In this document: positions 30,566-62,101 of the stretch, in pieces
Numbering within the stretch: position 1 is the first letter of the stretch
How the letters are laid out: each line of letters begins with the position of its first letter
NCBI GenBank assembly: GCA_963924565.1
Contig: OZ004609.1
Location: 31,000,001-31,064,000, forward strand
DNA length: 64,000 nucleotides
Direction: 5' to 3'
From: Ascidiella aspersa
Taxonomy: Eukaryota
Notes under the pieces: generated by a model
Seen by the model: the letters and a program-made list of their open reading frames with translations, nothing else
Database searches by the model: none
Told to the model about the DNA's origin: nothing
Program-made: the position numbers and the translations under genes

Positions 30566-32743
30566 TTATTTATTGACCTGCTCTTGAAAGACCGGGTGCA
30601 GTTCCATCGCTTGCTGCCAGGTCAACTTCTCAGCGACTAGGTCGGCTACTAATTGCGGCAGTTGGTCCAACTCGACGCGGATTTGGACGCAAGAATCGCG
30701 CTCACGAAGAGTGGCAGAGTGGGGTTCGATCTTGGCCGTGTCGAAGTCGACGGTTACGCCGAAGGGAATGGCGATCTCGTCCGTGCGCGAGTAACGCTTG
30801 CCGATCGAACCGGATGTGACGTCGACCTTGTGCGACACGCCCAGACGCGTGAGGTCGTTCGAGAGGCGCGCGATGAAGGGCTTGAACTCGTCTTTGTTGC
30901 TGAGCGGCAGTAGGGAGCACTTGTACGGCGCAACCGCTGGCGGTAGGGCGAAGAAACAGCGTTGTTCGTCGGCCGCACGCGAACGGAAATTGTGCTCCAG
31001 GCTTGCGTAGAGAAGGCGACCGAAGCCGAACGAAGGCTCGATCACCGATGGAACGTATTCCTCCACTTGTACGCGTTTCTTTATTCTCTTGGTGGACGCC
31101 ATCCCGGCTTGGATTGTGAAAGTGCCGCCATCGATGCCACACTCGGTCGGTGTCCCATCAGCTAGCGACGTCTCCAAAACGCGTAGCTCATCCTGATCAA
31201 GGCCTTCGAGGTGTTCCTGGACTTTCTTAGCGTCCTTTTTAAACGCTTTACCAATCGCTTGCTTGTTGAGCGACAGCTTGACCAGTTCGACTTCCTTTGG
31301 CGTGGGCAGTGGACGCTCGGCCACCAAACTGACCTTAGTGGCCTTTGCATGGCAGGTTAGATCATAGCACGAACGGTCAGCACAGCCGACACACTCCACC
31401 CAGCCGTAGGAGGTCTTGCATTCCGCGTCCCAACAGTCGCATGCGTAATGAGCCATCTCGTTATCCATGTGCTGACGGAAGCGGATTCTGGAAGGATTGA
31501 TGCCGATCTTTAGGCAGAAAAGGTAGATACGACCCATAAAGTAGCCAAGTGTTTCGTTGTTGATTAATCCATCGCCTACCGCTTCGCCAAGGGTCATGAA
31601 TTTCGGCGCCTCTCCGTTCAGTTGGGCATGGGCGGAGTAGATGGGCAGCCTCAGATCAGCAACAGTGCCAAAACGAGGGTGGCTTTTGTCAAGCGGATCA
31701 ACAAAATGCTCAATCTCCCCCATTTCAAATTCGCGAACCCTAATTAAACCTGCTCTTGGCGAGATTTCGTTACGGAAAGATGTTCCAATTTGCACTGCGG
31801 CAAAAGGAAGTTTTCCCTGATTAAACTCTAGCAAACGCTTGAAGTTTAGGAAAATACCTTGAGCTGTTTCTGGCCTCAGATAACTAGGCATGGCACCACC
31901 AGGGCCAATTGACGTTTGAAACATTAAATTAAAGTCCACAGGGTCAGAAATGTCATTGCCTGTCAGTGGAGATTTAACATTGTACTTTTTCATCAGGGCA
32001 CCCAGTTCCTCTTTTCCGTAGTTGTCAAGCTGCTGCATAACGCTTCTCATCTCAGCTTTCATCTCATCCGTTGTTCCCTTTTCTTGCATGAGCTTTTCCA
32101 GGTGGCCTTCGAGCAAGTGATCGGCACGAAAGCAGGCTCCGTTTTTGAGGTCCTTGACCATGAGGTCGGCAAACCTATCAACGTGTCCGGACGTCTTCAG
32201 GACTTGCGCTGGAGTGAGCATTGTGCAGTCCACCTCAAGCATCTGATCGTGCAAGATAAAGTGCTGTCTCCACTCCGCGATCATGTTGTTCTTCAGCATA
32301 CAGCCTACCGGGCCAAAGTCATATAAACCGCTAACTCCGCCATACAATTCAAACGCCTGGCCATATAAAAAGCGTCGCTTGATGGTTTCTTCAAACTTCT
32401 GACGAGGGAAGTCTTCTTTTCCTGCCAGTTCGTCTTCCTTGTCTTTCAATTTGCGCTTGCGTACTTTTAACTCGGCAACTGCCTGTTGCAAATCAATAGC
32501 AGGCGCTCCTGCCTCTTTCATTGATCTAACTGCATCTCCTTGTTCTTTGACAGAAATCCTTAAGGGTGCAAGCAGCTTTTCCAGTTCACCATCTGTTGCC
32601 ATGTTTGCCTTGATAAATGCGAGTTCAATGTCTTTCTGTTCCTTCAGGCGCAAGTTTTGTTCAGCTTTTTGCAAGGTCTTCTTTCCAACTCTTGCCGAAA
32701 ATTGTCGTGCAAAATGGATGTATGTCAGGCAAGATTTTAGCAT
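30566..32743 (-). CDS. GARS1: Glycyl-tRNA synthetase (eukaryotic alpha2 type) with single-exon CDS, putative mitochondrial presequence and WHEP domain; second in-frame ATG at 32602 for the cytosolic form
   Basis: 725-aa ORF with [63 protein letters not shown] and a C-terminal anticodon-binding domain; WHEP at [16 protein letters not shown]. Confidence 0.97.
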
Positions 32744-38469: not shown

Positions 38470-39899
38470 ATGAATGGCAGCCAAAGAGAAATGTTGAATT
38501 CAACAGAACCATGGCGGAGGCATGTCGAACAAGTTTCTTGGGCCATCCTGACCACTGCCTCCTTTTATCTTGTCGTGGTTCTCGTAATATTCGAGGTAAA
38601 ACGAGAAAAAAAGCCACGGAATACCAAAAGACGAAAAGGCTGGACTTGGTGCTTCAGCGAGAACCCAATGTGCATTCTGGCAGCGATCTCCTCGCTACTC
38701 AGATGCGCTTCCTTGCAGATTGAGCTGAGTTTCGGTACGCAGAGCGAAGCGGCCTGTCAAGCATTCATGTTCCTTAACACTTCGCTGAACAACGTGAACC
38801 TTCTGGCGGTGTATTGTATGTTGTGGATCCGTCAACGCGCGCTCTACAATAATGTAACGCTAAAGTATCTGTTAACACCTTGCTACCGGCTTCTGAACGC
38901 CGCCGTGCTGGCCTGCTTCTTCGTCGCCATGGTTACGCTGACGTCACTCGTGTTCGCCGGCCTCAAGCTTGTGACGTCACCCATCGGGTGTGTATACGTC
39001 ACGGTGCACGAATCTCTGCGATACGCGATCACTGGCGCGTCATTCGTGAGTTTGGTGGCAGCACAGTGCTCGCTTCTGGCTCTTATGCTCTATCCACTCT
39101 TCAAACATTACGGGATCACCAGAAACTGTTGTGGCGAAGAAAGAACCAACAAAGACCGGAGCAGCAAGATACAGGTAAAACATTATTATTTGTCTAAAAT
39201 TAAAGTAAAGATTGTGAAAAACTTACAAAAAGAAAAATGTTGCAACTTTGTTTGCCCGAAAATATTGGCGAACTTGTTGCTATATTTGTTTCAAATCGAG
39301 AAAAATTCTAATTTTTTTTAGGTTCGTGCGATAATGTTGTAGTTATATTTGGGGCTCACTACAAATTGCCGCCGTAGATTAAATTATAAACTTTACGAAC
39401 GATTTATAATACATCTGACATCAATGAGAAATAATATTGCTTTATTACGTTTCATTGAGGTTCAGCTTTTGTCAAATTTGTCGGTGATTAAATTTGCGAG
39501 ATCACGTTAAGTTAGTGACCATAAAAGTTACTTAAGTCGGCACGTCAATTAAGTCGATTTTAAAGTAAATTGCAGTTCCTTATATACGCACAGAATGTCG
39601 TCACGCGTCTTTGTATCAGCACGTCGGTGTGCGTCATATCTGACGTCATACTGGGCCTGGGCGTGTCCGTGCTCGATTCGGTGGTCAACCGGCGTTCCAT
39701 CCTAACCTGGCTCGTCTACAACCTCAACATGTTCGTCAATACGGTGGCGCTAGTGAGTTCCTTCAAGGACTGGACCGCGCGACTGTTTCCATGGAAAAGC
39801 CAGCCGGTTTCGTCCTCTGACGCCACCGACGCTGGAGGCGCTTTGTGCAGCGTCGGTGGAACGTCATCGCGTCACGTGATGTTCAGCACGACATCTTAA
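38470..39899 (+). CDS. Divergent 7TM receptor, copy A (intact, 336 aa; exons 38470-39174, 39594-39899)
   Basis: Phase-0 intron cag|gtaaaa...cacag|aat. Seven hydrophobic segments, N-glycosylation sequons NGS/NST, Cys at the top of TM3 and in ECL2 (SPIGC), LWIRQRALY at the end of TM3, and YNLNMFVN...FKDWTARLFPW at TM7/helix 8. Confidence 0.85.
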
Positions 39900-41460: not shown

Positions 41461-41820
41461 ATGAATGGCAGCAAATTAGCTTTATAAAATCTTAAATTCG
41501 ACTGAATTATGGCAAAGGTATGTTGAGCAAGAATCGTGGTATATCCTAACCACTGCTTCCTTTTATCTTGTTGTAATGTTCGAGGTAAAACGCGGAACGA
41601 AGCAACAAAACAATAAAAGACGGAAAGTCTGGACTTGGCACGGAAGCCCTGGGGGCGTTATTTTTGACTCTCACAAATTGAGCTGAATTTCGGAAAGCAG
41701 AGCTACGCGGCTTGTCATACATGTTCCTTTTAATTAACCGTTCGCTGAACCTGCTGGCGGTATAGTGCATGTTGTTGCAGTATTTCAAAATAATGTAACG
41801 CTTTGTATCTTCTCACGCTG
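41461..41820 (+). pseudogene. 7TM receptor copy B: decayed 5' part of exon 1
   Basis: atgaatggcagcaaa..., atcctaaccactgcttccttttatcttgt, ttcgaggtaaaacgcgga, attgagctga and ctgaacctgctggcggtatagtgcatgttg align to A/F with many deletions and stops. Confidence 0.85.
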
Positions 41821-43836
41821 TTTTTCATACAGCCCCAGTGACCAAAATTTACCACCCGCCAACAATATTACAGGTTCACCATATTTAATTTTAAATCACA
41901 AACATCTGATTTAAGAATATCTTCTTGAAAAACGTAATTATTGTTAACATATGTTGTAAACCAAACGATGTAAATTAAAGTCGCTTTTAGGGCGGTATAT
42001 TTCACGATTGGTCTGCTTAGTTAAAACTTATGATAAAAGTTTAACATAGCAGTTAATATTAATTTTGACTAACAAAGCAAAGCGTAATAAAAAACTCACT
42101 TTTGTTCACTACAGAGTTTTTTATTCAAAAGCCAAAGTACTAAACCTAAAGGTCGTCTATATTGAAAGTTAATATTTTTAGTATCCTAAATATTTTTAAG
42201 TCTTAAAATAAGGCACTATAGTTAGAGTGCCTGGGTGTTAAGCGCATTCATGTGAAACTTAAGCGATAAATTTAGGTTCTGTAGTTCCCCTAAAATTCCA
42301 CACTATTTAAAAAAAAAGCGTTACGCTTGATACGCAGCAACTATACCCCAAGGTTTACAAAGTGTTTCACATCGTTGTATCAAGCAGAATATACTTTTGC
42401 CTGCTGCTAGTTCTTGCAGTTGTTAATTTGTTTTTACCATGTTTAGAAATTAGGTTAAGAATGGCGTAAAACTAAACCGATATGTAAAATGAATTAATTA
42501 TCTTACTAACGGTCGCATTTTTTTATGAAATAAGCTCGGGTAGTTCTGTAGTTTAAAATGATTATATTAACTGTTTTAATTAAACGATTAAACATAATCA
42601 AGTAAAGACAATTTGGGAGTGTAACGATATATTTATTAAGTTTTATGAAACTAACAGTTTTTTTTTTCAACAAAATATAGCTAAGTTTTGCCCCAGACAA
42701 ACATTACTGTTAATAAACTACAAATCTTATTTTAGAAATTATGCTGCGGACCAAAAGAGTTAAACCGGCGAAACAAATTTAGCTCACCGGTGATAATTTG
42801 TTACACCCTGGTTTAAATTAATATCTTTGTTAAATAATTTAGTCGTAAATAATAAGAAAAAATATTTTTATGTTCTTTTTTGGGACAAAAGTAACAGTCC
42901 TAATAATAAGGCTCTTGCTTGATGTCACGTGTTACTTGCTTTTGCAGGCACGCTTAACGCGATAATTTTAGTTCCAGAAATTCTCCTGCAGCGCTAATAT
43001 CGGTTTCGAAAAAACGAGAAGGTCATTATTTTAGTATTTCAAGATAAGAAGCAATGTTTTTCCCGAGGTTTACAAAATGTATCGCATCGCTACATTTAAA
43101 GTTAAAATATACTTTGGCTTGTTGTTGTATAGTTAACAGTATAGTTGTTTGATTTTACCATTCTCCGGAATACAGTATAAAAAGAGTATAGAACTATACA
43201 GATTGCAAACTAAGTTAATTGCTACTACTAGGACTTGAGTGGTTTTCACATGGTTTTGTCGCAATTCTTTTTGAACAAGGTTAGTTAACAATGGTATTTG
43301 AAAAGGCTAAACTTATTGTTAAAGTCCGATGTTGCTTGACATTTTACTACGATATTGATGCCATATTTCTGAACATAAGGTAACACGATATGATCCAACC
43401 CCATTGGCGTCTATTAACTATGCCCAAAACAAGCAAAAGAGATCTAATTAAACCGTTTAAAGGATTTTTTTGTTATTTGGCCCAATAATTAACATGCTAT
43501 CTTAAATTTCTATATTAATTAACCCTGGTATCAGAGATGTACCGATACCATTGCTTGATTGGGCTTTGGACTCCCATACGACATTATCGTTCATTCTTGC
43601 TTATTATTCTGTATCAGGATTTAGTTATCAGTTTATTTGATTTAAAGGGTTGAACTTTCGCTGGAAAACGCATAGAAACTACAATTTTGGTCGCGATTTC
43701 AGTAAGCAGCTAATAACTTATTAGTTGGAAATTATTATCCTTTCATTGATGATGATTGCACCATATTATAGAAAAACTTTGTTATTATAAGGAAAGTTAA
43801 TCTTTGGCTAAAAGTTACATTAAGCTGTTTAGAAAA

Positions 43837-45533
43837 ATGAATAACAGCCAATTAGAAACGTTGAATTCAACAGAAACATGGCGAAGGTCTGTCGAGCAAG
43901 CCTCGTGGGGCGTACTGACAGCTGCTACTCTTTACCTTGTTGTGGTTCTCGTAATGTTCGAGGTAAAATGTGGAGAGAACCTGGTCAAGCAGGTGGTAAC
44001 TAAAAGACGAAAACAGTGGACTTCGAGTTTCGGCAAAAACCCGATGTGCATTCTGGCGGCTGTATTTTCGCTGCTCAGATGTGCTTCCTTACAAATTGAG
44101 CTGAGTTTTGGGACACAGAGCGACGCTGTCTGTCAGACATTCATGTTCCTGTATTATACCCTCAACAACCTGAACTTGCTGGCCGTGTACTGCATGTTGT
44201 GGACTAGACAAAGAAACCTTTACAAAGATGCCGTTCTTCGGTATCTCCTAACGCCTTGCTACCGATTTCTCAATGTCGCCGTCTTGGTCGGACTTATCGT
44301 TGCCATGGTTGTCCTTACGTCACTCGTATTCGTGGTACTCAAACTGGTGACGTCACCGTTTGGGTGCATGTACGTCACGGCGAATGGGTCTGTGCGCGTC
44401 GGATTCATGGGGGCATGCTATTGTGGGCTGGTGGCAATACAATGCTCACTTCTGGGCCTTATGCTTTATCCACTCTTCCGTCATTACGGGATCGCTAAGA
44501 GCTGTTGTTGCAGTAAAGGAGTCATTAAAGAACGTAGCAACAAAATACAGGTAAAACTTGAGGTTTTTTATTACGGTAAATTTGTTGCTAAAATTTCGAT
44601 TTCTGTAGTGGAAAAAAACTTCAGGGTTAAAATAAGCCCTCGAAATGTTTAAACCGAACTCAAACCAATCTGCCAAAAAATATAGTGAACGTTGGTGGAT
44701 TGTCTTACACCCAGCGGTAAACAACCAGAAACTGTCCGGTTCGGAAGATACCATGTTTCTTGAATTTATTTAAACTAGGATTTAATTGGGACAATTGCTT
44801 TTATGTCAATATTTAAAAGTTTTTAGGCGGTAGGAATACTATTCTACTATCACCTGGTTACATCAAATTTAGTTTTGTATTATTGGTTATTAAAATACCG
44901 GTCCTATCATTTAAGAATTATTAACTAAGTAAGGACAAGGTTGCGTCAAAAAATTAAAAATGCTTAAAAACTACAGTGCCAAATAAGGAAACGGCGTTTT
45001 ATAATCTTAAAAAAAGCTTTTCGACACAAATTACATAAAGCTTTTCTAAATCGGAACTATAGCTTTGCAGAAATGTATCAGCCGGTTGAAGAAGCTTTTT
45101 AAAGTTTCAAAATAACATGTTGCACTTTATGGGATAGCACAACGTAAAAATTTGACGCTGCATAAAACAAATAAATAGTATATTGTTATTTGCGCAGAAC
45201 GTCGTTACTCGTCTTTGCGTCAGCACGAGCGTGTGCGTCATATCTGACGTCATACTTGGCTTTGGTTCAGCGTTGTACGATTCTTACGCCGAACAGCACC
45301 GTCCAACACTCTCCTGGCTTCTCTACAACCTTAACATGATTGTCAACACGGTGGCGCTAGTGTGCACATTTCGTGATTGGACTGAGCGACTGTTTCCATG
45401 GAAACACCAGGCAAGCTCTGGTGCCATGGCAACGAATGTTATTGAGGCGGTTAAGGCCCCGAGCCCGAAAAATAAACCTGCTGGACTCAAACTTAAAGAC
45501 AGGGTTCCGAATACGATTTTTGACCTAGATTGA
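43837..45533 (+). CDS. Divergent 7TM receptor, copy C (intact, 349 aa; exons 43837-44550, 45198-45533)
   Basis: Same intron position (KIQ|NVV) and motifs LWTRQRNLY, SPFGC, LMLYPLFRHY, FRDWTERLFPW. Confidence 0.85.
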
Positions 45534-48500: not shown

Positions 48501-50112
48501 AAAATGAAGGTTGTCAGGCTGGAGTACACTAGCATCGTAACTTCTATACGTTCACATCCGTTTTTTAGTCGCTGGCCGCTTGCATTATTCTACGCTTTTA
48601 TTGTTTTGTTTTAAAGCTATCTTTTTTATAATTTTTTTAATTGTAAAATATAGAATAGACCATCCGTATTAGTATTGTGGTAAATATTTTTTTAAATAAT
48701 TTAACATGTATATAATTTTGCCGCTATAATTTTATACTTACCTTATGTGCTGGCTTACTCCAGTTTTTCGGGCATTGTAAATTCAAGCGGACTGTAGCGT
48801 GTCGTGCTAAGAGGCGCGAATATTTCTGCCAATTGGTTCGCAAAATAAAATCAGAGATCTGGTAAACTTAAGCTGCATGGATATGATTTTCTAGCGCCAT
48901 TGCTAGGTCAGACGAATCTCAAAAAATATTAGCTTATTAAAGAAGCCCTGCTTAATGCTACTCCAACTTTAAAATTATGTTTTTCCTTGGTGCGACATTT
49001 GCATATATCGAAATTCAGAAAAAATAACAATTTTTATAGATGTAGACCCAAAGTTTCGAACTTACCCCTTAAGCAGTTGTTCATTTGAACGGTCGCATTG
49101 GGGACTTACGAAATTTTGCCCCAGTGCTTACTTGAAACTGTGGTGGCCTTTGTTATGGGTCGCCTTTGGCAAAATTGCAACATGAGAAACAAAAACCCAA
49201 CCTGCCAAAACCAGTCACACCGAAAACAAATTCAAACGTTTAAACTTATTGACGACATGTATCGTTAACCATAATTAAACGACAAAACGACAAATTAAAA
49301 AAAGTGTGAAAAATGGAAATTCGCAGTAGCTGACCTATTCCAGGTTCTTATGCAGACGCCTAAAACGATCAACAACACATAATGTAATACAAAGATTTCT
49401 AGCTGAAAATTTATCCAAGTTCTTGCGCTTAAAACGATTAAAACAAATCGAACCAAAGCATTGGCGTTGTCGAACCCGATTTGCTCTTGATTCGAAACAT
49501 GACCAAAATATTTATTTCATCATGCAGAAAAATAACTAGTTTTATGGGTTTTGTTTTCCACTCAGTTCTAGTGACTTTACAAAATTTTCCACCTGCCAAC
49601 AATATCACAGGTTTCGTAATTTATAATTTTTTAAACCCTTTTTTTACTAATTTAAGAATACGTATATCGTACTCGAAAAACGTAAATAACAAGCACTATA
49701 CTGTAAACCCAAATGGTGTAAAATTTCCCAATTGATGATTTAAGGCGGTGTATTTTACAATTGATCTGCTCTGTAAACTTTTAAGGATAAAAAATATTTA
49801 ATATAGCAGTTTTTATCAATTTTGACTAAATCAAAACGTAAAAAACATAAATTCATTTTTGTTCACTAGTGTTTTTTCATTCATAAGGCTCTGCAGTTCC
49901 CCTGTAATTCAACACTATTTTAAAAAAGCGTTACGCATGATATTATAGGATTTGAAGATACGTAGCTTAAATGAGCCATACAAACGATTTATAAAATATC
50001 TGACCTCAAAAAGAAATAATATTGTTTTATTATACAAGATTTGCATTCAGGTTCAGCTTTTGTAAAATTTGTCGGTGATTTAGTTTGCGCGATCATGTTA
50101 AGTTACGCATAG

Positions 50113-50412
50113 AACGTCGTCACTCGTGTCTGTATCAGCACGTCGGTGTGCGTCATATCTGGCGTCATTCTGGGTCTGGGCGTGTCCGTTTTCGATTCCG
50201 TGGTCAATCGGCGTTCAATCCTAACCTGGCTCGTCTACAACCTCAACATAATCGTCATAGGCGGCGCTAGTGAGCTCCTTCAAGGACTCCCATGGAAACG
50301 CCAGACGGCTTTGTCCTCTGACGTCACCGGCAACGTCACCGACGCTGGAGGCGCCTTGAGCAGCGCCGGTGCAACGTCATCGCGTCACGTGATGTTCAGC
50401 ACGACGTCTTAA
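50113..50412 (+). pseudogene. 7TM receptor copy D: orphan exon 2 (A-like), no exon 1
   Basis: tag|aacgtcgtcactcgt... closely matches 39594-39899. Two deletions scramble the end of TM7/helix 8, but the frame is restored at PWKRQ. Confidence 0.8.
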
Positions 50413-51873
50413 GAACTAAAAATAAACAAAAAAATAAAAATAACGTGCTGGTCAATCCCCGCAAGTTTGCTCTGTTGTTGCTGCTTATATTTTAACCTGA
50501 TTAAAACGTTGAAAGTTTCGGCATTGAGATCCAGTGTCGTAAGCAAGTTTTTTTCAAATAACTTAAGTCTCAGTGAAGTCATTTGTAAATTAACTTTAGT
50601 CAATTATTTTAGAATAAATAACGAGTCAAGTCCCAATCAAGTCATAATTAGAGCAAGTCCTTGTCATAAAAATTGCATGTTTAAGTCCGACTATGAGAAA
50701 TACCTCAACCTAAAAGTACTGAAAACGCAACATGTAACAAGCAATTTATTTTATGTGCAAAAATCTGGAAAAATAACCAAATTTTATCAAAAAAATCTTA
50801 ATGAAAACACTTAATTTCATCCCAGTCATTTGTCAAACAAAATAAAGTCAAGTCATTTGTCGAAAAGACTTAAGTCAAGTCGAGTTATTTTGCCCAAAAA
50901 ACTCAAGTCAAGTTAAGTGCTTTATAAATTGTGGCTTACGCGCAGTCTGACTTAAGTCATTACAACATCGTTAAGAACTAATCCAAATAATGCCGGTTTA
51001 ACGAAATACTCGAATCGAAACAATAAACACAACAAGCGAAAGAAACATTTCAACGTAAACTTTATTTGTATTGGAAATGGTGATTGTCGTTTTAAAGTAG
51101 GAACAGCGTTTAACTCTTTGTAATTGATTAATTGGTTGAGACGATCGTAATAACTGATTTTGACTGATGTAAGATAACGTAGGACTATAGGAGATTAAGC
51201 TTTACCTGAGAACTACTTCGTCTATTTATTTCAGAGATATAACAGTGGAAGAAGCTTCATGGGTTTATAAAAAACATTTTGCACTATTTTGACGTTACGT
51301 GTGTTTTTACATTCACATTTTTAATCGTTTCAGTGATTTAAATATAGATTGTATTCATGTTTAACTAAACTTACCTTAATACATTTCTTGTACAGAACAA
51401 CAAAGTGTGGTGTCGTTCTATTTTGAGCTACTAATTTATTGTGAACGAGGCCCGTAAGCCACACGGCTAAAAAGTTTGCCAAAGAAAGTATACCGGAGTG
51501 TAACCTATTGCGAGATTCGTCAAACGCGCAGGCTCAAGTTAGTTTGTAAAACGAGAGGGTTTGGCAGGTGACGTAATACGCATGGTTTCCGTAAACTTGA
51601 AAGGCAACGCAAACAAACGGTTTTAAAGGGAAACATAGATTAAATAACAAAACTTTACAAACGATTTATATTACGTTACTTCTGACCCCAATGAGAAATA
51701 GTTTTACTTTATTATACAAGACTATGCATTCAGGTTGAGCTTTTGCAAATTTGTCGGTGATTTAATTTGCAAGATCACGTTAAGTTAGTAATCCCCAAAA
51801 TTATTTGAGACGACTCGTCAAAAATGAGGTCGAATTTGAAGAAAGTAAATCGCATTTCCTTATTTACGCATAG

Positions 51874-52168
51874 AATGTCGTCACGCGTCTTTGTATCAGC
51901 ACGTCTGTCGTCGGTGTGCGTCATATCTGACGTCATACTGGGCCTGAGCGTGTCCGTTTTCGATTCCGTGGTCAAACGACGTTCAATCCTAACCTGTCTC
52001 GTCAACACGGTGGCGCTAATGAGCTCCTTCGAGGACTGGACCGCGGGAATGTTCCCATGGAGACGCCAGACGGCCTTGTCCTCTGACGTCACCAATGCTG
52101 GAGGCGCCTCGAGCAATAGTGTTGGTGGAGCGTCATCACGTCATGTGATATTTAGCACGACATCTTGA
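51874..52168 (+). pseudogene. 7TM receptor copy E: orphan exon 2 (A-like), frameshifted
   Basis: 5-nt insertion near 51905 (acgtctgtcgtcggtg) and a 21-nt deletion removing the YNLNMFV segment; no exon 1 upstream. Confidence 0.8.
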
Positions 52169-54683: not shown

Positions 54684-56593
54684 ATGAACGGCAGCAAAAT
54701 TGCGTTGAATTCGACTGCATCATGGCTAAGGTCTGTCGAGCAAGCTACGTGGGCCATCCTGACAACTGCCTCCCTTTATCTTGTCGTGGTTCTCGTAATG
54801 TTTGAGGTAAAACGCGGAAAGAAGCAACAAAATAATAAAAAACGGAACGGCTGGACTTCGTGTTTCGGCAAAAACCCTATGTGCATTCTGGCGGCGTTAT
54901 TTTCGTTGCTCAAAAACGCCTCCTTACAAATTGAGCTGAGTCTTGGGACACAGAGCGACGTCGTCTGTCAGACATTCAAGTGCCTGTTTTATACCCTGAA
55001 CAACCTGAACTTGCTTGCGGTGTACTGCATGTTGTGGACTCGACAAAGAAACATTTACAAACATGCCGTATTTCGGAACCTTCTGACGCCTAACTATCGA
55101 AGTTTCAATGTCGGCGTCTTGGTTGGGCTTATCGTTGGCACGGCTGTCTCGACGTTACTCGTAATCGTGGTACTCAAGATGGCGACGTCACCGTTTGGGT
55201 GCATATTCGTCACGATGCAAGGGGTTGAGATCAACCCGAACAACTGGCTTTATTTTGTCGGTTCATTCTGGATTCAATGCTTACTTTTGGGCCTCATGCT
55301 TTATCCACTCTTCCGTCATTACGGGATTGCTAAGAGCTGTTGTTGCAGTAAAGGAATCATTAAAGACCGTAGCAACAAAATACAGGTACGAAAAGGTATT
55401 TTTAGTAAAGGTAAATTTGTTTCTAGAATTTCGATTTCTGTAGTGGGATAAACCTTATGGTAGAAATAGGCCCAAGGAATTTTTAAAGCATATTCCATCC
55501 AATCTGGCAAAAAATATACTAAAAGTTGCAGGATTGCATTACATCCAGTGATAAAAGTAAGTCAAAAAAGGATTTGTAATGGATGTTCTGTAATACATTA
55601 GGTACGGCGTACCGGTAAAATACATCTTTAAATAATTTCTAAAAAAATCTTTTAAAAAAATTTTTTTTACCTAGCCACCGTTTTTTTTTGAATTTATTTA
55701 AATTGAGATTTAATTTCGAGATTTGTTGCCTGCATCAAACAACAATCTTAACTTTCCTAAAAATTTATTCTCCTTTATGGCATGGTATGGTGTAACCTTT
55801 TGACGTCGTTTTTTAAAGATTTCATTGCGTTCCGACAGGAAAATTATTCTACTCTAACCGCTGATTACATAAAATTTCATTTGTATTTTATGTTATTAAA
55901 ATACCCGTCCTTTCATTTGTGGATTAGTTACTGAGTAAGGACAAGGTTCCGTCAAAAATTTATTAAAAATACCAAAAATAAATATAAGTGACAAATAAGA
56001 AAACGGCTGATGAAAATCGTATTTTGACATAAATTACTTGAGCATTTTTAAAGGAGAACTACAGCGTCTATTTCTTTTCAGAAACCTTGGGTTTATAGAA
56101 ACATTTTGCACTATTTTGACATTACGCGTGATTTTACATTCACAATTTTAATCGTTTCAATGATTGCCAGTTTCAATGACAGCAACTGCCTATAGGTTTC
56201 CCGCTTTTGGTACAGTATACCGTTAAAAATTGACCACGGCTGAAACAAACAATCTGGATATTTTTCTTAATGCAGAACCTCGTTACGCGCCTCTGCGTCT
56301 GCGCATGCGTGTGCGTCATATCTGACTTCATACTGGGCTTTGAATCTTCGTTTCCCACAAGGCCATCACTCTTTTGGCTTGCCCACAACCTCAACATGAT
56401 CGTCAACACAGTAGCGACAGTGTGCACATTTCGTGATTGGACTGAGCGATTGTTTCCATGGAAACACCAGACAAGCTCTGGTGCCATGGCAACGAATGTT
56501 ACCAAGACGGCTAAGAACACAAACCTAAAAAATAAACATGCTGGACATACACTAAAAGACACGGTTGCGAATACAACGAATTTTAACCTATAG
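54684..56593 (+). CDS. Divergent 7TM receptor, copy F (intact, 339 aa; exons 54684-55385, 56276-56593)
   Basis: Same phase-0 intron (KIQ|NLV); motifs LWTRQRNIY, SPFGC, HNLNMIVN, FRDWTERLFPW. Confidence 0.85.
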
Positions 56594-60642: not shown

Positions 60643-62101
60643 CTATAGGTTAAAACTCGTTGTATTCGCAACCGTGTCTTTTAGTTGATGTCCAGCATGT
60701 TTATTTTTCGTGTTTGGGACCTCAACCGTCTTGATAACATTCGTTGCCATGGCACCAAAGGTTGTCTGGTGTTTCCATGGAAACAATCGCTCAGTCCAAT
60801 CACGAAATGTGCATACTATTGCTATTGTGTTGACGATCATGTCCAAATTAAGGAGAAGCCAGAAGAGACGGAGCTGTTGAACGGAAGAACCGTACAGCGC
60901 TGAACCAAGGCTCAGTATGACGTCAGATATGAGTCACACGCTCGTGCAGACGCAGAGACGCGTAACAACGTTCTGCGCAAATAAAAATATACTAATTATT
61001 TGTTTCATGCAGGATCAAATTTTTACGGTATGCTTGCCAAAATGTAGAACCTATAGGCAGTTGGTTTCATTGAAACTGGAAATCACTGAAACGATTAAAA
61101 TTGTGAATGTAAAACCACATATAATATCAAAATAGTGCAAAATGTTTTATAAACCCATAAAGCTTCTTCCACTGTTACATTTCTGAAAGAAATGAACGCT
61201 GTAGTTCTCCTTTGGAAAAGGTTCAAGTCAAGTCACCACTGGATGTAACACAATACGCCACAGTTCAAAACATTATTCGCCGGATAAGATCGAATTCAGT
61301 TTAAACATTCCAAAGGGCTTAATTTAAACCCTGAATTGATTTACACTACCGAAATAGAAATTTTTCGTAAGATATCATTTTTTACCTGTATTTTGCTGCT
61401 ACGGTCTTTAATGGTTCCTTTACTGCAACAACAGCTCTTAGCGATCCCGTAATGACGGAAGAGTGGATAAAGCATAAGGCCCAGAAGAGAGCATTGAGGA
61501 GCCACCACTAAACCGACAAAAGAAGACACGCTGATCGCGTAGAGTTGAACTCTGTGCGTCGTGTCGTACATGCACCCAAACGGTGACGTCATAAGTTTGA
61601 TTATCACAAACAAGAGTGACGTAAGGGCAACCATGGCAACGATAAGCCCAACCAAGACGGCGACATTGAGAAATCGGTAACAAGGCGTTAGGAGGTACCG
61701 AAGAACAGCAGTTTTGTAAAGGTTTCTTTGTCTAGTCCACAACATGCAGTACACCGCAAGCAAGTTCAGGTTGTTTAGGGTAAAATACAGGCACTTGAAT
61801 GTTTGACAGACAGCGTCGCTCTGTGTCCCAAGACTCAGCTCAATTTTTAAGGAAGCACATCTCAGCAGCGAAAACAACGCCACCAGAATGCACATAGGGT
61901 TTTTGCCGAAACACGAAGTCCATTGTTTCCATTTTTTAGTGCCACCTGCTTACCCAGGTTCTTTCCGCGTTTTACCTCAAACATTCCTAGAACCACAACG
62001 AGATAAAATGATGCAGCGGTCAGTACGGCCCAGGCCGCTTGCTCGAGAGACTTTCGCCATGGTTCTGTTGAATTCAACGTTTCTAACTGGCTGTTGTTCA
62101 T
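60643..62101 (-). pseudogene. 7TM receptor copy G: full length and inverted, with a frameshift and a nonsense codon (exons 62101-61386, 60972-60643)
   Basis: 1-nt deletion at ~61940 relative to C (gtggc-actaaa vs gtggtaactaaa) and TGC>TGA at 60936-60934; splice sites intact. Confidence 0.85.

Follow-up and report, generated by a model that had tools for sequence, protein, structure and literature searches.

The window analysed here, a 64,000-nucleotide stretch of the Ascidiella aspersa genome (contig positions 31000001-31064000, on C3, of a 308.6 Mb assembly), contains a tandem cluster of two-exon 7TM genes, comprising four near-complete copies (A, C, F and G) and three fragments (Table 1). 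The cluster goes on beyond the window with copies H, I, J, K and L, and a further copy, M, lies on C8. The intact copies are A, C, F, I, K and L; frameshifts are present in H, J and M. An ICL3 intron bounded by GT and AG lies at the identical position in 10 of 10 modelled copies, its splicing being predicted from the sequence; a search of ~6% of RNA run X8 yielded no reads supporting the exons of F or G, a result that we weigh neither way. Copy G is broken in the present assembly by a 1-base deletion in ICL1 near 61939 and by a TGA in TM6 at ~60934-60936. The deleted base is found in runs X7 (5/5 reads), X1 and X2, indicating that the deletion is either haplotype-private or an assembly error, and copy G may be intact in other haplotypes.

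Table 1. Gene copies, fragments and copy F features of the 7TM cluster, in window coordinates
Feature	Position	Strand	Basis or remark
Copy A, intact	38470..39899; exons 38470-39174, 39594-39899	+	ECL2/TM5 segment at 38992-39063, ancestral type
Copy B, decayed exon-1 fragment	41462..41830	+	
Copy C, intact	43837..45533; exons 43837-44550, 45198-45533	+	C-type segment, derived, at 44368-44439
Exon-2-only fragment, A type	50104..50409	+	
Exon-2-only fragment, A type	51864..52165	+	
Copy F, whole	54684..56593	+	
Copy F, exon 1 CDS (N-terminus, TM1-TM5, start of ICL3)	54684..55385	+	ORF, GT donor
Copy F, upper TM3 (positions 3.28-3.37, counted from the conserved Cys)	54975..55004	+	
Copy F, ECL2 after Cys plus upper TM5 (24 codons; alignment codons 178-201)	55203..55274	+	
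Copy F, putative phase-0 intron in ICL3	55386..56275	+	GT..AG, frame continuity, collinearity with intronless paralogues
Copy F, exon 2 CDS (TM6, ECL3, TM7, helix 8, tail)	56276..56593	+	
Copy F, upper TM6-ECL3-upper TM7	56324..56389	+	in-frame 18-base deletion vs. copy M (longest)
Copy G	60643..62101; exons 62101-61386, 60972-60643	-	ECL2/TM5 segment at 61497-61571

The phase-0 ICL3 intron is a feature of the cluster's subfamily, the nearest paralogues, on C9, and most retrieved members being single ORFs, and it possibly represents an intron gain. A recent tandem segmental duplication (C3:31063293-31071804 vs. 31083714-31092231, ~98.5-98.8% identical, offset ~20.4 kb) generated J and K from H and I, and copied the two frameshifts of H as well; the 5' part of I is like G and the 5' part of K is like C, marking one more recombination. 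The window also holds a glycyl-tRNA-synthetase-like gene (30566-32743, minus strand), a single intronless 725-codon ORF with WHEP, class II core and anticodon-binding domains, and a large inverted repeat at 6678-7456 (arms of up to 166 bases, 99% identity), possibly a foldback or MITE element.

According to the accessible part of Johnson, Razy-Krajka and Stolfi (2020; PMC7397655), Ciona KH.C3.516, one of a large 7TM family specific to tunicates, is expressed in the axial columnar cells of the larval papillae, where it is enriched at the exposed (apical) tips; it is put forward as a chemoreceptor, with a neurotransmitter ligand given as an alternative. A full HMMER scan returned 483 relatives at E<=0.001; 25 distinct relatives were looked up, of which 14 are unnamed and 11 are named, all 11 of them being from Ciona, Clavelina or Styela. 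KH.C3.516 is among the relatives: P0135 and P0159 agree with its sequence in the accessible part of the published supplement, as judged by motif match and by-eye comparison. Copy F exon 1 matches P0135 at 28% over 202 columns (E=5e-16), and the six intact cluster copies match P0159 with E values of 5e-25 to 6e-16. We conclude, on the basis of these sequence comparisons, that the copies are members of the orphan 7TM family of KH.C3.516, reported to be tunicate-specific. The genome-wide count for the family, which forms tandem arrays, is 110 matches, and the Clavelina orthologue of the cluster is P0008 (support 1.0). Two cysteines, in TM3 and in ECL2, are each kept in 98-99% of 144 members, and an arginine exactly 25 residues past the TM3 cysteine, in a W-x-R-Q motif, is 92% conserved. 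The DRY, CWxP and NPxxY motifs are absent, the conserved TM6/TM7 residues being R, C, D, Y, N, F, D, W, R and P. No Pfam match was found for A, C, F exon 1, P0001 and its C9 neighbour, P0159 or P0008; Pfam 7tm_1 is absent among the 25 families listed, out of 63, for the 144 members; and no PDB sequence match was found. A word-indexed protein search with F exon 1 gave none in 347 candidates, and a profile search gave 3 matches. In some relatives (P0014, P0017, P0019, P0030, P0031 and similar sequences; 390-510 aa) the match is interrupted after TM5 and falls into two stretches, which would imply a long ICL3 insertion. A literature search covering sources other than subscription journals turned up no study of selection, conversion or structure in the KH.C3.516 family, and the accessible part of Johnson et al. 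contains no such analysis.

Structure prediction points to a receptor fold. The AlphaFold model of the intronless paralogue P0001 has seven long helices, an ECL2 hairpin and helix 8 (pLDDT 87.7), and the model of F exon 1 has five long helices, TM1-5, and the ECL2 hairpin (pLDDT 85.7). In Foldseek searches the best E value was 3.2e-4, and class A-type GPCRs made up 48 of the best 50 rows, including all of the top 17, a weak preference for class A. VIA-align gave a tie, at Z 14.4-16.7, of TAS2R, class A, class C and microbial rhodopsins, the top natural rows being TAS2R14/TAS2R structures (Z 16.2, rmsd 4.2, 264 aligned), themselves tied. In UniRef, three family members are labelled 'GPCR family 1 profile domain-containing protein'. 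The predicted fold is GPCR-like and class A membership is not established; the cluster genes are likely ligand-sensing receptors.

To locate the differences between copies, regions were taken from the P0001 AlphaFold model, independently of variability. The region thus defined as ECL2 after its cysteine plus the extracellular half of TM5, codons 178-201, coincides with the ECL2/TM5 segment singled out by a sequence-only reading of the window, and in the copy F model it comprises the end of a strand, a loop of 8 residues and the opening 13 residues of TM5. In pairwise comparisons of A, C, F and G, 13-20 of the 24 amino acids of this segment differ, vs. 11-37% in the other TM core. The results confirm the sharp difference after SP(I/F)GC described in the sequence-only reading, all of whose quoted peptides are present, and also the variation that it saw in upper TM3 (at 3.29, 3.30, 3.32 and 3.33) and the indels in TM6-ECL3-TM7, exemplified by the F deletion. 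Its description of the scaffold as nearly identical is overstated: in addition to the TM-core differences, F differs from A, C and G at 32-64% of residues in TM4 windows, and ICL1 and ICL3 are variable too. Positions 3.29, 3.30 and 3.32 are polar family-wide and likely inward-facing, as judged from helix register and family polarity, and family-wide entropy peaks after the ECL2 cysteine. Over three regions (A, C, F and G; 62 of 247 labelled columns), pocket-side residue difference is 0.56, vs. 0.22 elsewhere, a concentration with a circular-shift rank p of 0.004 (p=0.008 with the five intact copies). The sequence-only reading, which drew on class A GPCRs, is supported in that divergence is concentrated on the predicted extracellular pocket side.

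That reading had attributed the divergence to diversifying selection on ligand specificity. We used self-written codon models (GY94/F3x4; M0 branch lengths with free scales; NEB site posteriors) on nine copies and 279 codons, with 28 indel-flanking columns of 307 dropped and copy J, a 98.8% duplicate region of H, omitted. With one tree, 2dL was 0, 0.15 and 0.0 for M1a/M2a, M7/M8 and M8a/M8, with no omega>1 site class; with five recombination-partitioned segment trees, 2dL was 0, 0.19 and 0.01, again null. Since selection simulated on 10% of sites at omega 3 (12/12 runs) or 5% of sites at omega 4 (12/12 runs) was detected in 24/24 runs, the null result is informative. Regional omega is 0.47 for ECL2/TM5, 0.46 for TM6-ECL3-TM7 (17 alignable codons), 0.26 for upper TM3 and 0.23 for the intracellular core, and is significantly <1 in all four. 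The M7 vs. M8 comparison that the sequence-only reading had proposed thus yields, on one tree and on partitioned trees and with high power, no positively selected sites, and its claim of general diversifying selection across paralogues is not supported, given the null site models and the low regional dN/dS. Tree dS is doubled in the ECL2/TM5 segment (2.95 vs. 1.51). The same reading had held that raised synonymous divergence would point away from selection; such a rise is seen for C vs. F/G, but for A vs. C dS in the segment is at background (0.94 vs. 0.84; dN/dS 0.54).

The pattern of synonymous divergence is part of a wider signature of segment exchange. PHI gives p=0.0005 (2000 permutations), both on all informative sites and on third-position sites, and in AU tests none of the trees obtained from three neighbouring segments is accepted for the ECL2/TM5 segment (p=0.003, 0.034 and 0.002). 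In the segment tree, L, F and G group together, apart from C, I, K and M. From codon 68 on, nearly all diagnostic sites of F and G are of the C type, codons 178-201 being the exception; copy L is A-type except at about codons 202-250. In the segment vs. the scaffold, dS is 0.90 vs. 0.28 for C-F, 1.33 vs. 0.25 for C-G, 0.15 vs. 0.73 for F-L, and 1.24 vs. 0.50 for A-L; the 3-5-fold excess for C vs. F/G points to segment exchange. Despite their dS of 1.24, A and L differ at 3 of 24 residues, and in A, H and L segment omega is 0.04-0.11, indicating strong purifying selection. The Clavelina orthologue P0008 shares the A-I-x-G-A-S-F motif of the A/L type, showing the A/L-type segment to be ancestral. 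We conclude that the divergence of the copies in this segment is likely to come largely from exchange of ECL2/upper TM5 between copies, and we infer that gene conversion gave the 24 codons their own genealogy. Two histories fit: the segment passed to F/G from an L-like donor, or L took codons 178-250 from an F/G-like copy and the C/I/K/M segment came from an old paralogue outside the sample. The second history, with L as recipient, gains slight weight from the high A-L dS. Under shared time, C vs. F/G comparisons return omega values of 10-29, which we reject as an artefact of discordant genealogy; the case is a caution that tests assuming a shared genealogy can produce spurious omega of this size and that standard site models can overlook a burst of change confined to one copy, as in F.

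Relative to G and L, the F-private changes in codons 178-201 number 15 nonsynonymous and 0 synonymous, vs. 23:11 in codons 68-177 and 5:5 in codons 202-259. In the segment (18 two-ratio fits), F alone gives a two-ratio LRT of 11.4 against omega=1, rising to 15.5 when the F/G stem is included. In a scan of 36 pairs in five structure-defined regions (180 tests), the top values were 11.6 for F-L and 6.6 for F-G, and an LRT of 11.6 was reached in 0/221 and 0/247 null simulations that scanned all pairs and regions and were run without multi-nucleotide mutation, the second set (247) having F, G and their stem fully neutral. The LRT is 6.25 (F-L) and 7.61 (F-G) for single-base-difference codons only, and 8.35 (F-L) and 1.59 (F-G), with a shared-time test of 3.4, upon removal of six codons possibly affected by tiny compensated frameshifts. 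In a raw window scan, p is 0.0004 for a neutral F-G distance of 0.20 but 0.13 for one of 0.35; measured F-G distances are 0.14-0.28, and non-coding distances are 0.14-0.23. The codon 178 change is not fixed, 18/18 X7 reads (paralogue reads included) showing another base, and leaving that codon out does not change the test. The expectation of dN/dS>1 on the pocket side holds for ECL2/upper TM5 of copy F, after scan correction, but not for the paralogues in general.

Other origins of the F segment were considered. A long compensated frameshift or inversion is rejected, cheap-gap alignment gaining little, as is import from a sampled locus, no match of >14 bases being found elsewhere in the regions compared. 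The low dS of the segment rules out a distant donor. An assembly artefact is rejected too, since an X1 contig matches 55090-55325 with 0 differences in 236 bases. F has an intact frame and both disulfide cysteines. Its omega is 1.07 in codons 68-177 (TM2-TM4) and 0.30-0.38 in codons 202-307, and the relaxation outside the segment suggests that F may be drifting. The whole-gene branch-site test is null for F (LRT 0.74) and also for the foregrounds G, F+G+stem and C. The TM5 changes fall on both helix faces, since they are spread over seven consecutive residues. We conclude that F, a generally relaxed copy, likely went through an episode of positive selection that gave rise to the burst and that, judged from the predicted structure, likely retuned what the copy senses.

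An F-related sequence over window positions 55105-55350 is present in runs X1, X2, X3 and X7, with 0 pattern matches in the assembly. It differs from F by ~13% in TM4 and has 3 additional bases in the ECL2/TM5 stretch; X1 carries it together with F, and X2 carries it with no contig across the F segment. It may be a divergent F allele or a missing paralogue.

To extend the comparison, we analysed 12 paralogue clusters, made up of the present cluster and 58 full-length ORFs retrieved out of the 110 matches. In only 7 of the 12, dN is higher in the ECL2/upper-TM5 segment than in the intracellular core. An independent 10-copy cluster on C6, which is closest to KH.C3.516 (37-42%), has the same ECL2/TM5 segment as its most divergent part (dN 0.51 vs. 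0.07) and is mosaic (PHI p=0.001), with the segment of five copies unalignable with that of their siblings; from its sequence, the C6 segment looks like the same replaceable module. Selection on the C6 segment, for which pairwise LRTs reached 10.2, is not accepted, the segment being unalignable between subclades and differing at all three codon positions; its omega of 1.09 is not significantly >1. Site models (M7/M8) are null both for the C6 cluster (p=0.27) and for a dispersed 4-copy group (L087, L088, L096 and L101, on C5, C1 and C8; p=0.16), in which upper TM6-ECL3-TM7 has an omega of 2.31 that is not significant (LRT 3.05). In one C6 copy, L073 (C6:25112000-25114500), an arginine replaces the 99% conserved ECL2 cysteine, likely disabling the disulfide.

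Taken together, we consider it on balance probable that the locus is a tunicate-specific orphan 7TM cluster in which a predicted pocket lid has been swapped by gene conversion and F alone has been retuned by positive selection. Duplication, inversion and decay, all evident at the locus, have produced the ~10 near-full copies, on two old scaffold types (A/H/J/L and C/F/G/I/K/M), and conversion would account for the separate genealogy of the segment. The Clavelina-like, strongly purified A/L-type segment may have kept the ancestral ligand, and the 15:0 changes in F would record selection for a new ligand specificity on an otherwise relaxed copy; the ligands themselves, to go by the literature, may be external chemical cues. 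Most of the divergence between copies, according to the tests above, goes back to old lineages and to exchange of the segment, against a background of purifying selection. The view taken by the sequence-only reading, pervasive diversifying selection on pocket-lining sites in all paralogues, is largely refuted, and we regard it as very improbable: the pocket-side concentration, the TM3 variation at likely inward-facing positions and the omega values above 1 in the C6 segment and the 4-copy group, neither significantly so, speak for it, but it meets null site models at high power, regional omega significantly <1 in every pocket region, and conservation of the segment in A, H and L. A stronger competitor, which we nevertheless judge unlikely, dispenses with positive selection: extracellular segments would be relaxed, gene conversion would do the rest, F would be degenerating, and its 15:0 ratio would be due to chance or to clustered multi-base mutation. 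Relaxed constraint is usual for extracellular 7TM loops, and the null site and branch-site tests, the omega of ~1 in TM2-TM4 of F, the entropy peak after the ECL2 cysteine and the breakage of several sibling copies all suit such an account. However, full neutrality of F, G and their stem gave the observed statistic in none of the 247 simulations, the F signal stays once multi-base codons are removed, and F retains its frame, its disulfide pair and constraint in codons 202-307.

Exchange of the segment with selection on F can be carried further, to a reading in which the chemoreceptors so far missing from tunicates would be those of this family, with the ~24-residue ECL2/upper-TM5 stretch as a portable specificity cassette, swapped here and in the C6 cluster, retuned by bursts of selection as in F, and segregating in populations as divergent F-like variants; we put this forward as a speculation that we ourselves find doubtful. 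Another possibility is that the family is not chemosensory, the segment being under host-pathogen or self/non-self pressure or the ligands being endogenous peptides. Rapid turnover, conversion and divergent alleles are typical of immune and recognition loci as well, and fast turnover, likely conversion and possibly divergent alleles are found here. The accessible part of PMC7397655 bears on the question in both directions, offering a neurotransmitter ligand as an alternative but locating the sole characterised member to larval papilla cells, at their exposed apical tip. We think a non-chemosensory role rather improbable; it would change only the class of ligand and would leave the proposed mechanism of evolution untouched. 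The ties of the pattern to ligand specificity and to chemosensation are ones that we infer; the pattern itself is real, in a known but barely studied family.

According to the accessible part of PMC7776563, tunicates sense chemicals and choose settlement sites, and orthologues of vertebrate, insect and nematode chemoreceptors, OR, V1R and V2R included, are reported missing from them, which makes the identity of tunicate chemoreceptors an open question. To the KH.C3.516 candidate family, the cluster adds a predicted GPCR fold, chemoreceptor-cluster-like evolution and natural chimeras. It resembles that family in homologous sequence, in its motifs (TM3 Cys, L-W-x-R-Q, G-C in ECL2, Q..LL.L.YP, R..C...D and F.DW), in tandem arrays and expansion, and in having no Pfam family; it differs in being a separate subfamily with its own Clavelina orthologue, KH.C3.516 being nearest the C6 cluster, and in having an ICL3 intron where the C9 paralogues and most retrieved members are single ORFs. 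With class A (rhodopsin-like) GPCRs it shares, as modelled, the 7TM fold, the ECL2 hairpin, helix 8 and a TM3 Cys 3.25-ECL2 Cys pair; it has a conserved arginine exactly 25 residues past the TM3 cysteine, as at 3.50 of class A, but set in W-x-R-Q instead of D/E-R-Y; unlike them, its family lacks a 7tm_1 match, DRY, CWxP and NPxxY, and ties across 7TM classes in VIA-align. Vertebrate TAS2R, V1R and OR clusters and nematode chemoreceptor clusters evolve by birth-and-death, conversion and episodic selection. No sequence homology to these was found for the present family, whose sensory role is putative; the likeness covers tandem expansion, pseudogenes, mosaic copies and divergence centred on ECL2/TM5 and TM6-TM7. 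Receptor clusters are well known to evolve by conversion together with episodic selection, and the present one comes with natural chimeras, namely the ancestral A/L type with its Clavelina orthologue, the imported C-type segment and the remodelled F, that make the 24-residue specificity hypothesis directly testable.
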